Source: Bacteroidales bacterium
GTDB lineage: Bacteria > Bacteroidota > Bacteroidia > Bacteroidales > WCHB1-69
DNA: 51,780 nucleotides
Direction of reading: 5' to 3'
Assembly: GCA_028684405.1 (NCBI GenBank)
Contig: JAQUGA010000003.1
Span: 1 to 51,780 of the forward strand
The number at the start of each line of letters is the position of its first letter. Within the stretch, counting starts at the first letter, position 1. This document shows, piece after piece, positions 31,726-34,800 of this stretch. The notes under the pieces were generated by a model, which saw only the letters and a list, made by a program, of their open reading frames with translations, was not told the origin of the DNA and made no database searches. Position numbers and translations under genes: made by a program.

Positions 31726-31733
31726 TATATTTG
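31726..31733 (+). promoter_or_regulatory. -7 box (TAnnTTTG) upstream of the (AC)15 leader and the T9SS cargo operon
   Basis: TATATTTG, with a TTG at 31703-31705 giving a 20-nt spacer to a partial -33 element. It would produce a leader of roughly 150 nt that contains the microsatellite. Confidence 0.35.
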
Positions 31734-31842
31734 TCATGTAAAAAAAATTAACTAAATTTATGATTTATGAAAAATTTCTACAGTTTAGAAAGTACAAGCA
31801 TGGCTCCTTCAGGCCGAGCTGTGTTAAGTTCGAGTGGTGCGT

Positions 31843-31872
31843 ACACACACACACACACACACACACACACAC
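31843..31872. repeat. Perfect (AC)15 dinucleotide microsatellite
   Basis: 30 nt of uninterrupted AC, inside a 37-nt strictly alternating purine/pyrimidine run (31838-31874). It ends 18 nt before GTG 31891. Confidence 0.98.
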
Positions 31873-31890
31873 GTTTAGTGGAAGAAGGAA

Positions 31891-34800
31891 GTGTGGTTTT
31901 TTAATGATTTTATTTTATTTACCATGTTCACACTAAAGGCTCAGGAAAGAGTTGAATCGTGTGGATTTACCTATGAATGGGTTCATCATATAGGTGATAG
32001 TATAACTTTTGTAGATGAAGAAAATTCCATAGGATGGCTTTTTGACGGTCATGTTTTTAATCCACAGAACCCGCAAATTGTTAGAGAACTTCCAGTTATG
32101 GGAAGATGTGATTGCGTTTATAAGATGATTGAAAACTGCAATGTCTATATTCAAAATACGGATGTTGAAGTATATGATGAAAATTTTCAATATTTATTTA
32201 CATTTGAAGACACAAATTTGAATTCAATTATTCCAGGAGAAAGTTGTTATGAATACCCTTCAAGTGGGGTTTATTATTTGAAAATTATCGAATATTTACC
32301 ATGGATAACAGAAGAATTTGGATGGTATAAACTCCAAGTTGACAAGTATTCAGATATTGAAGATATTATTGATGTTTCAATAAATACCAATGATATATGT
32401 TCGGGGGATCAAATATGTGTGAATATTGAGAATATAAATTTTTACGCATACTATTATATTTATTGGAATGATTCATTAATACAAAGTGGTGATGGTGAGC
32501 TACCACAACAGCAGTATTCATATTGTTTTGGACCTAGCACTATTGGTCTTGGAACTCTTCATGTTAAAATACTAGATGAATGTGAGGGAGAAGCCAATTA
32601 TTATTATAATATTAATGTAAAAAATGTAACCGATTTTGCATTACGAACGCAAGTTTGTTTAAATCAAAATGTTACGATTAGCACTAATAGTATAACTTGG
32701 TGTGAAGATCCTGTCCAAGGAGCTACTTATGCTGTTGACTGGGGCGATGGCACAGCTAGTAGTGGGTTGCCGGCATCACATGCATATTCTTCTTCTGGCA
32801 ATTATAATGTTGCACTAACTATTAATAGTTCGCTCGGGACGCAAACTATTGTTAAACAAATACAAGTAAATCCTTTACCCAATAATGTGAATATTACAGG
32901 ACACAGACACACATGTGCAGGCACATCTACTTATACCATTACCAACCCACAACAAGGAACGAATTATACTTGGACAATATATCCTGCAAATCACGGGAGC
33001 ATCCCATATCCGAATACGGGAACCACCCAAAATATTACATGGAATACACAGAATTTTGGTCAAAATCCAGCTCTACTAATCATTACTTCAAACAATGGTT
33101 GTGTTAATGTGGATACAATACAAATATGGAAATGCTGTTGGAGAGAGGATCCTGCTAACATAGATCTCATATTATACGACCAAGTAATTTCTGAACCATT
33201 AACGAATTTATCATATTTTATAAATGGCGAAGTAACGTTTCAAGGAACAAATACTTACGACAATATTGGTTTTTTTACTGGTCCAGAAGCAAAAATATTA
33301 ATTAACAACAATGCTAAAATTACTTTTAATAATTGTTCTTTTAGTGCACTATGTGGTTATATGTGGGAGGGGATTATCGTTGAGCCAGGCTCTAGGATTA
33401 CAGTAAATGGAACAGCATATGGCAGCTCGCAAATTTGGAATGCTGTTAATGGAATTCGCTCTGAAAATGGTTCGAGATTTACTGTTTTTAATACAATATT
33501 CAATTGTAATTTAAATGGCATTAATGTTCAAACATATTCAGGTATGCATAGAGGGATGGTGTCAAAATGTACTTTTATGTCTACAAATGGACTTGATACT
33601 CCAATGAATTTGCTACCTCCCTATTCTAATCGTAGAGGAGAAACTGGCATTAAAATATCCAGTGTCAATAGTATCCAAATTGGTAACACTGCCAGCACAA
33701 CTAACCAAAACGTATTTAAACATCTAGACTATGGTGTTTACATTGAAAACTCAAATGTTACTTTATATAATAATAGTTTTGGACCAATGCCTATGACATC
33801 TGGTTTTTTTATCATACCCAGTAACGGATATGGTGTTTATGCGTTAAATGGTAATGTGAGTGGTAATACAATTAATGTTGGGAATTCGTCAACAAATACC
33901 ATTTATTCTAATATTTTTACAGATTGTGCAGTTGGTATTTTTGCCAAAAATGATTTTAATGTCAATGTTTATAGAAATGCTTTTAACAGTCCAACAAATA
34001 TTATGAGATTTGGGACTCTATTTATGGATATTGCTTATAGAACTCTAAATATTGCTAACTGTACTATTACAAATCCTGGAATTTTTGGTCTCTCTGTAAT
34101 GAATATACCATACACGACATTAAATATTGATAATAATCATTTTTACAATAATGTTGATGGAGCTAACGAAACCCAGTATAATATTGTCGTTGGCAATGTA
34201 GTACTTACAAAAATTAATGCAGCAAACATAAGAGGAAATGTAATGCATAATTCACTAAATAATGGTAAATTTTTGACAGGAATTGCAATAAGTAATATAG
34301 AGGGCTGGACTGATTTGTTTTATGGAAAACATTATCCATTTATTTTTGGAAATACAATCAATTACAGCCCTTCTATTAACGTTACGACTGAAAGCACCAA
34401 GCGGTGCGGAATTAGGGTGGAAAATTGCAGGAATGCAAATATTGAACAAAATGTCATATCATGTCCTCAAGCAATAAGCAATGAAACAAAAGCTGCACGT
34501 TTAACAGGTATTTATGTAATATCCTCTCCTAGTACAGTATTGTGCCAAAATTATGTCAATCATCGAGGCTTTGGAATTCAATTTGACGGTAATTCAAGGA
34601 ATACTAGAATTATCAAAAATGAATTGACAAATAATTTTTATGGTTTTAAGTTCGTCGGTGCGACTATTGGAAATCAAGCAAATGGCGATAGAGCCTATGA
34701 TAATAAATGGCTTAGCTTTAGGACTGGTCCATATAGAGCAAATGGCGATTTAGCCTCTTCAAGCTTGTGGAGATATAGAATGCCAACTGGGATTTTATAT

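Follow-up and report, generated by a model that had tools for sequence, protein, structure and literature searches.

Simple sequence repeat (SSR) contingency loci have been described mainly in host-restricted pathogens. In Haemophilus influenzae, the leader transcript of the adhesin genes hmw1A and hmw2A contains 7-bp repeats, placed after the promoter and before the start codon, with a graded effect on expression, and in Helicobacter pylori the genes hopZ and sabA share with oipA a design in which a CT repeat lies in the signal-peptide region. A passage in one report describes for oipA a CT repeat in the 5' region and on/off switching by frameshift via slipped-strand mispairing (PMC10564699). 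In licA (lic1) of H. influenzae, a (CAAT)n repeat is accompanied by start codons that fall in two of the three reading frames; the repeat number sets the in-frame start and gives more than two expression states (PMC2212159). In the Bacteroidota, phase variation is known almost only via DNA inversion, and a 2025 review of the field covers Bacteroides solely via invertases (PMC11868660). Our study concerns a window of 51,780 nt from a Bacteroidales bacterium (the whole stretch analysed; contig JAQUGA010000003.1, assembly GCA_028684405.1), in which a perfect (AC)15 microsatellite stands in the leader of a gene for a type IX secretion system (T9SS) cargo protein with beta-helix and PKD domains. 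We consider that this tract is probably a slip-strand hypermutable element for translational phase variation, or a three-level 'dimmer', acting on this one protein within a small Bacteroidota clade.

The closest analogue in logic is licA, and the closest in repeat type and protein class the CT-repeat genes of H. pylori. As in licA, the repeat lies just inside the 5' end of an open reading frame (ORF) and downstream of starts in different frames, which occupy two of the three frames in one orthologous locus (L003) and three of three in another (L002). The differences from licA are that the unit is a dinucleotide rather than a tetranucleotide, that licA encodes a cytoplasmic lipopolysaccharide-modification enzyme of a host-restricted gammaproteobacterium, and that a TAG codon precludes fusion in the window species. 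In H. pylori, oipA/hopH, too, encodes an exported surface protein and has a dinucleotide repeat near the 5' end of its coding region, but that repeat is CT rather than AC and serves Sec/Bam export in a pathogen rather than T9SS cargo in uncultured Bacteroidota; we know of no combination of an upstream ORF and TAG such as that found here in the CT-repeat genes of H. pylori. The hmw1A/hmw2A repeats resemble the derived arrangement of the window species in lying between promoter and start, although the unit is a heptanucleotide and the effect is exerted at the transcript level, with no upstream-ORF frame logic. The invertible promoters and shufflons of Bacteroidales belong to the same phylum and serve the same purpose, stochastic surface variation, but depend on site-specific recombinases, whereas the window locus has no associated inverted repeats or invertase gene. 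Full-text literature searches found no paper linking SSR slippage to T9SS cargo, Bacteroidota or Flavobacterium; a first-pass annotation, made from the letters of the window, had likewise known of no description of (AC)n-controlled T9SS cargo in Bacteroidota. The SSR contingency locus appears to be genuine and a known kind of switch, and SSR switching of T9SS cargo in Bacteroidota appears to be undescribed.

The tract occupies positions 31843-31872 with a period of 2, 15.0 copies and 100% matches, as found by TRF and by direct reading, and so has the 15 units first claimed for it. It is the sole long SSR of the window, which has a GC content of 34.8% and in which the only other dinucleotide runs of at least four units are TAx5, TAx4 and GAx4. 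Under a first-order Markov model the expected count of (AC)15 per window, on both strands, is 2.4e-16, which bears out the earlier statement that the repeat is far beyond chance. The tract is embedded in a strictly alternating purine/pyrimidine run; the run was correctly noticed at first, with a length of 37 nt, and in fact spans 38 nt (31837-31874). The promoter lies about 110 nt 5' of the tract, and the gap between the tract and GTG 31891, the codon that opens the main ORF, is 18 nt, as had been proposed. The marks of an SSR contingency locus include a long perfect repeat beyond that expected from composition, a position at a surface or secreted-protein gene, either in its promoter or in its 5' coding part, and a repeat number that differs among near-identical strains. 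Each of these three was found here, with repeat numbers of 15, 16 and 16, and the product, a secreted or surface T9SS cargo protein, is of a class typical for contingency loci.

The repeat numbers come from three complete alleles of the window species, taken as assembled: n=15 in the window, n=16 in an ENA assembly (L006) and n=16 in a JGI assembly, via the peptide P0134. A protein search returned P0013, a 1-aa variant of the window protein, one source contig of which is the ENA contig k141_296127 (L006). This contig overlaps window positions 21926-45628 with 99.941% identity over 23,705 nt and 12 single-nucleotide polymorphisms (SNPs), none of them within 29118-38588, and its sole indel relative to the window is the 2 nt that separate (AC)16 from (AC)15. 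With the 45-aa upstream ORF as query we recovered P0134, a 37-aa JGI protein of sequence MKNFYSLESTSMAPSGRAVLSSSGAY(TH)5V, which matches exactly what an n=16 allele would encode; P0135 (45 aa), from the same cluster, is the annotated product of the window's own NCBI contig. Under exact look-up, the 45-aa and 58-aa upstream ORFs and P0134 had no entry as retrievable genes. A lone indel in 23.7 kb, together with a second n=16 allele from JGI, supports the core of the claim that this is a hypermutable tract at a contingency locus.

Additional contigs were available from the Logan assemblies, which use k=31 and discard singleton k-mers (PMC12424806). The three gene-bearing Logan contigs all begin within the tract, with (AC)14, (AC)15 and (AC)12 before the GTTTAG flank, and each opens in the 'A' phase. 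When de Bruijn assembly was simulated at k=31, an unmixed allele of at most 15 units assembled through the tract, n of at least 16 or mixed alleles break the graph, and the right-hand unitig of a mixed sample opens with exactly the shortest allele present. In the light of this simulation, the starts at 14 and 12 units are suggestive only, either of alleles co-existing in the sample or of stutter artefacts.

Among 5.8 billion proteins, the only close homologs were P0002 (65% amino-acid identity, L002) and P0003 (48%, L003), and our comparison covers three to four species in all. Their genomic context differs, with an SNF2 helicase 5' of the gene in L002 and another neighbour in L003. Comparison of the orthologous regions, which the first-pass annotation had recommended, showed that the two diverged orthologs keep an AC tract in the equivalent place, of 5 units in L002 and 16 in L003, and keep the ATTTATGAAAAA start as well; in the alignments, the segment from the tract to the signal peptide is the least conserved stretch and contains many indels. 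The main frame is open through the tract in L002 and L003, from which it follows that their tract is, as judged by its frames, a classical 5' intragenic frameshift switch. The ATG starts given for these orthologs in databases lie only 6 residues before the A/QE motif (slash, cleavage site), and reading through the tract yields canonical signal peptides. Since the database ATGs leave no signal peptide, the true starts of the orthologs must, on this reading, lie 5' of the tract. The called protein of L003 reads through the tract as MKTCQCRLR(HT)5RFRKNKPILFLILMAMFMSFNLSA/QE; an ATG at -26 is in frame when n=1 mod 3, the MKNF ATG when n=2 mod 3, and no start when n=0 mod 3, so that start codons occupy two of its three frames. 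In L002 (n=5), reading from a GTG at -9 continues in frame across the tract and yields the canonical signal peptide MVRTHTRFVWFLMILFNMFTLKA/QE, and the other two frames have an ATG each (MKKF... and MIYEK...), fusing at other tract lengths, which fills all three frames.

An exhaustive search of representative proteins added P0136 (37% identity), encoded at locus L016. This locus has a homologous -7 box, TATGTTTG, and the same start as the other loci, and its ORF, MKNINRFDYRSMFINRSREVSTFANCKAKFEKCLFLFLLLVTFNLNSFS/QT..., is uninterrupted into the mature protein. Where the other loci have the AC repeat, L016 lacks one and reads AGC ACA TTT. The MKNF ORF of the window is homologous to the N-terminus of P0136 (MKNINRFDYRSM...), and the pattern MKN..F[DE]...M is common to the window, L002, L003 and L016, with synonymous codon changes between species. 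Because the MKN... ORF of L016 runs straight into the signal peptide, the upstream MKN ORF of the window is, by this homology, the ancestral N-terminus of the cargo gene; the first-pass annotation had treated the 45-aa ORF as a regulatory upstream ORF, an add-on to the gene, and in this respect it has to be corrected. The lack of the repeat in L016 and the shared MKN pattern likewise indicate that the AC repeat is an intragenic 5' SSR that arose in the clade of the window, L002 and L003. The distant family members P0004-P0006 have ordinary N-termini, the leader of the one distant member for which DNA was read (P0006, on L015) is free of SSRs, and none of the best newly returned representative homologs has HT or TH repeats, which points to a tract that is specific to the clade. 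A metagenome pattern scan for an MKN start plus (AC)5 returned only two unrelated chance loci (L004 and L005), and a genome-contig collection gave 0 matches to the leader pattern and no relatives in a protein-alignment scan; the lineage is absent from that collection.

For analysis of the reading frames, each locus was rebuilt in silico with varied tract lengths. A 5' intragenic frameshift switch of the licA/oipA type was found in L002 and L003 but not in the window species, where TAG 31876 is kept in every assembly (in the flanks, and in P0134, which ends ...THV*). Reassignment of TAG was ruled out, as TAG ends 4 of 28 long ORFs and is an ordinary stop in this genome. At n=15 it is the frame of GTG 31834 that ends at TAG 31876; the frame of ATG 31767 (MKNF) ends there at n=16, 13 and 19 and that of ATG 31760 at n=14 and 17, and at each n the remaining two frames end at TAA 31902 or TAA 31934. 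Relative to GTG 31891, the stop position rotates with n among 12 nt upstream, a 14-nt overlap and a 46-nt overlap. Rebuilding n=12-18 supported what had been said of the two upstream ORFs, namely that those of 58 aa (31760-31936) and 45 aa (31767-31904) end 3' of the main start and that a change of one unit shifts their stops among TAG 31876, TAA 31902 and TAA 31934. Past the in-frame TAG, the first start codon to occur is GTG 31891, which would open a 17-residue presequence with no basic residue, in agreement with its earlier description as a weak start whose signal peptide lacks a basic n-region. The window locus would act like the licA/oipA family only if reinitiation is assumed.

We propose that the ancestral gene started at a 5'-proximal ATG (MKN...) and had an N-terminal extension of ~20-25 residues, followed by the signal peptide. 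The AC repeat would have expanded inside the 5' coding region, at a Thr codon (ACA) preceding a conserved TTT, giving rise to a design for the clade in which the SSR lies 3' of starts in different frames and slippage would select the start, if any, for the full-length protein. In the window species, a later net insertion of ~13 nt, purine-rich and bringing TAG 31876, would have split the gene into a short upstream ORF and a main ORF startable only at GTG 31891. Ribosomes would load first at AUG 31760 and AUG 31767 of the A/U-rich leader, read the tract as Thr-His repeats and terminate at TAG 31876, TAA 31902 or TAA 31934, as set by n mod 3. Translation of the main ORF would be best when an AUG-initiated ORF stops at TAG 31876, 12 nt before GTG 31891, through termination-reinitiation, with high states at n=16, 13 and 19 (MKNF) and at n=14 and 17 (ATG 31760), and poorest at 12, 15 and 18 units, where TAG 31876 would terminate no frame other than that of the weak GTG 31834. 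The n=15 tract of the window would accordingly be a 'low' allele and the n=16 tracts of ENA and JGI a 'high' allele. What was observed is the tract itself, its polymorphism and conservation, the geometry of the frames and the fact that the upstream ORF is homologous to a real N-terminus; that the conserved promoter drives transcription, that ribosomes use the 5' AUGs and reinitiate at GTG 31891, and that expression is affected at all are proposals.

A more specific version for the window species, which we put forward tentatively and regard as doubtful, is that the tract has been re-used, from an in-frame switch to SSR-set translational coupling, with n mod 3 picking the frame that ends 12 nt before the GTG. 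Two frames would be AUG-initiated via a 7-nt duplication in the leader and one GUG-initiated, which would produce a three-level dimmer of reinitiating ribosomes. If this coupling were true, the window locus and its orthologs would represent a family of SSR contingency loci not described before for T9SS cargo of environmental Bacteroidota, and the switch would operate in a phylum largely without Shine-Dalgarno-guided initiation.

Several points weigh against phase variation by this tract. Fusion of an upstream start to the main ORF is impossible at any n in the window species, with TAG 31876 in frame, and a switch there would need reinitiation. None of the sampled alleles lets the ancestral MKN start reach the main ORF, as it is either blocked or in another frame (window n=15, L006 n=16 plus TAG, L002 n=5 and L003 n=16). 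The presequence from GTG 31891 has an internal Asp in addition to its lack of a basic residue, and export may be poor at any n. The tract of L002 has only 5 units and should be fairly stable, and the window species is sampled by three complete alleles only. The Logan breaks at the tract could stem from stutter in PCR or sequencing or from co-occurring relatives, and the left-hand Logan contigs break at 31770 and 31845 for other reasons.

The main rival to phase variation, although we think it unlikely, is that the locus of the window species is a relic switch, in which the tract is mutable but exerts no control, the TAG having severed the 5' region, and the difference between 15 and 16 units is neutral drift. 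In one variant of this explanation the main ORF is silent and decaying, and in another it is constitutively translated from GTG 31891. A relic would be expected from a TAG that bars fusion at every n and is fixed in all assemblies of the species, from the GTG-derived presequence with no basic n-region, and from RNA folding, which predicts start-site accessibility independent of n. It is opposed by the 3.7-kb ORF, which is unbroken despite a genome of 35% GC and does not differ between strains, and by the perfection of a 15-16-unit tract, as such tracts are usually lost fast without selection. Furthermore, both other complete alleles have n=16, the length that places the stop of the strongest upstream ORF 12 nt 5' of GTG 31891, and basic residues (WKKE) are present in the main frame just 5' of the GTG.

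A second explanation, which we judge improbable, is that the tract is a constitutive leader element, either an unstructured CA-rich spacer or ribosome standby site acting as a translation enhancer or a Z-DNA-prone segment influencing transcription, with its length incidental or giving quantitative tuning. In Bacteroidota, Shine-Dalgarno pairing plays a minor part and leaders tend to be unstructured, and the tract has a predicted unpaired probability of 0.56 at n=15, forms part of the 38-nt alternating run and lies 18 nt 5' of the only usable start codon. However, L002 has 5 units and L016 none, so a long tract is dispensable for the gene, and in L002 and L003 the tract lies within the reading frame. 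Partition-function folding at n=0-25 also gave a predicted accessibility of the start region that stays at 0.38-0.42, unchanged with n. The leader folds no better than shuffled sequence (minimum free energy z-score 0.18), and a permissive Rfam scan of 31600-32000 gave chance matches only, far below gathering scores. Control of the gene through leader structure, which the first-pass annotation had offered as one way for tract length to act, was rejected on the flat accessibility and the z-score.

A third explanation, an amino-acid-sensing leader peptide whose (Thr-His)n stretch would sense charged tRNA-His and tRNA-Thr in the manner of his/thr attenuators, is very improbable: all three frames of (AC)n are alternating ACA and CAC codons, and of the two His codons CAC is the less used here (75 CAC, 213 CAT), but the downstream gene encodes a secreted beta-helix/PKD protein rather than a biosynthetic one, the leader has no terminator/antiterminator structure and the L016 ortholog has no Thr-His run; the function of the gene and the missing terminator led us to reject the attenuator. 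Finally, the possibility that the tract is an assembly or sequencing artefact, to which the proneness of short-read assemblers to error at dinucleotide repeats and the break at the tract in all Logan contigs might point, is effectively refuted by the recovery of the same tract and flanks from four independent sources and pipelines (NCBI, ENA k141, JGI and Logan) and by its presence in two further species.

If phase variation by this tract is true, slip-strand bet-hedging would extend to another phylum and another secretion system, in what is probably a non-pathogen setting. The window species would then provide a natural test of SSR control via the position at which an upstream ORF terminates, rather than via frame fusion. 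The locus also matters for annotation and assembly, as gene callers start the cargo gene at ATG 31924 and call the ancestral N-terminus a separate 45-aa protein, and k=31 assemblies always break at the tract.

Table 1. Features of the (AC)15 locus and its cargo gene, in window coordinates
Feature	Position	Strand	Basis or remark
Promoter: TTG(ACT) '-33' element (31703-31708) and TAtaTTTG '-7' element (31726-31733)	31703..31733	+	Bacteroidota-type pattern, conserved in orthologs
A8 run at predicted transcription start, opening the A/U-rich leader	31740..31747	+	Placed by distance to the -7 box; L002 has G then A7
7-nt tandem duplication, ATTTATG x2, giving ATGs 31760 and 31767 in different frames	31756..31769	+	TRF, period 7, 2.1 copies
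Upstream ORF, frame 2, 58 aa, through the tract to TAA 31934 at n=15	31760..31936	+	ORF reading, locus rebuild
'MKNF...' ORF, 45 aa at n=15, probable ancestral cargo N-terminus, now severed	31767..31904	+	Homology to P0136 N-terminus
GTG GTG, potential weak main-frame (frame 1) starts, 4-9 nt 5' of the tract	31834..31839	+	Identical in L002
(AC)15 microsatellite, hypermutable element	31843..31872	+	TRF, direct reading, Markov model, allele comparison
TAG in main frame, 3 nt after the tract, parting all upstream frames from the main ORF	31876..31878	+	All assemblies of the species
Purine-rich AGTGGAAGAAGGAA, net ~13-nt insertion relative to L002, abutting GTG 31891	31877..31890	+	Alignments
Main ORF, 1245 aa from GTG 31891: N-terminal domain, PKD, right-handed beta-helix, T9SS C-terminal sorting domain	31891..35628	+	Pfam, homologs
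Terminator-like hairpin, 15-bp stem and T-run, directly 3' of the main ORF	35639..35674	+	Hairpin search

The features of the locus are listed in Table 1. The -7 box, TATATTTG, is at 31726-31733, the position given for it in the first-pass annotation. The Bacteroidota-type pattern TTG-N20-TAnnTTTG to which it belongs has 4 matches in the whole window, and scored as a sigma-70-like site the promoter reaches 10/12. The elements are conserved across loci: ACTTGACTT, followed after 15 nt by TTATATTTG, is invariant and has the same spacing in the window, L002 and L003, and the homology between the window and L002 starts just 5' of the promoter. Given this conservation in all loci, the tract is very probably transcribed. 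Further upstream, 5' of the promoter, two of the loci have tandem arrays: L003 has 8.4 copies of a 15-nt unit, AGAAGAGGAGAATAT, at 121-246, and L002 has 4.8 copies of GTAACTAG at 7899-7944, flanked by the complementary arms GAGGAGGGGAAA and TTTTCCTCCCCTC.

Within the leader, the ATTTATG duplication is present in the window and in L002 (8082-8095), and L003 and L016 have a single copy; the duplication thereby supplied an AUG in a second frame 5' of the tract in the window and L002 lineages. For the purine-rich element that abuts GTG 31891, we infer only that it may serve as a weak Shine-Dalgarno-like element.

Some Logan contigs end within the leader. Three of them (L009, L012 and L013) end at the equivalent of window position 31845, a break that fits a co-occurring leader of the L002 type, which has G instead of C at 31815. 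As this break is expected if such a leader co-occurs, related species with this locus seem to share habitats; searching the literature by sample accession turned up nothing on the habitat. Three others (L010, L011 and L014), from different samples, end at 31770, which is the end of the 31-mer beginning at 31740, the first A of the A8 run. This hints at a co-occurring variant at 31740, a SNP or a different A-run length, which could be a second variable site. The breaks at 31770 and 31845 also prompted us to consider a multi-copy leader; no paralogous copy was found, and the breaks fit the variants at 31740 and 31815.

The main ORF has Beta_helix, PKD and Por_Secre_tail domains in Pfam, and the last of these (PF18962, E=3.2e-10, residues 1172-1244) identifies the product as T9SS cargo. 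Database gene calls give it a start at ATG 31924 and a length of 1234 aa, which leaves 6 residues before the cleavage motif and no signal peptide. The conserved motif LKA/QE ends at 31941, and a hydrophobic core is present; a signal peptide read from GTG 31891 has no basic n-region, and one read from ATG 31924 no h-region. The NCBI record lists the 45-aa frame-shifted N-terminal remnant as a protein of its own (P0135), with the cargo start at ATG 31924, and both calls are an annotation artefact caused by the repeat.

Hairpins were also found at the site equivalent to that of the window hairpin in L002 (11893-11932, 18 bp) and L003 (4355-4388, 15 bp), and their sequences differ. This post-stop structure, kept in position in three species, may be a terminator or an mRNA-stabilizing 3' structure between two T9SS cargo genes. 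Its presence at the same place in the window, L002 and L003 suggests that the tract probably governs one gene rather than an operon. The first-pass annotation had described the tract as standing in the leader of a T9SS cargo operon; the T9SS cargo gene is as described, but control of a whole operon is doubtful with a conserved hairpin after its first gene.

Downstream of the main ORF are two more ORFs with Por_Secre_tail domains, and on its 5' side the window encodes a PAS histidine kinase (25822-30441) followed by a hybrid response-regulator/kinase (30453-31616). This kinase pair is preceded on the minus strand (21977-25705) by an ORF for a 1242-aa gingipain-like Peptidase_C25 with a propeptide, PKD domains and Por_Secre_tail, and the neighbourhood is rich in T9SS cargo genes. 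The UvrA protein encoded in the window places the organism among uncultured Bacteroidota: its best named match, from a 'Bacteroidales bacterium' metagenome-assembled genome, has only 70% identity, and other relatives have 76-93%. Two 10-nt homopolymers were also observed, both probably ordinary for an AT-rich genome: an A10 at 17665-17674, which ends 9 nt before ATG 17684, and a T10 on the plus strand at 47529-47538 (A10 in gene sense), which lies within the first codons of uvrA (start 47557, minus strand).

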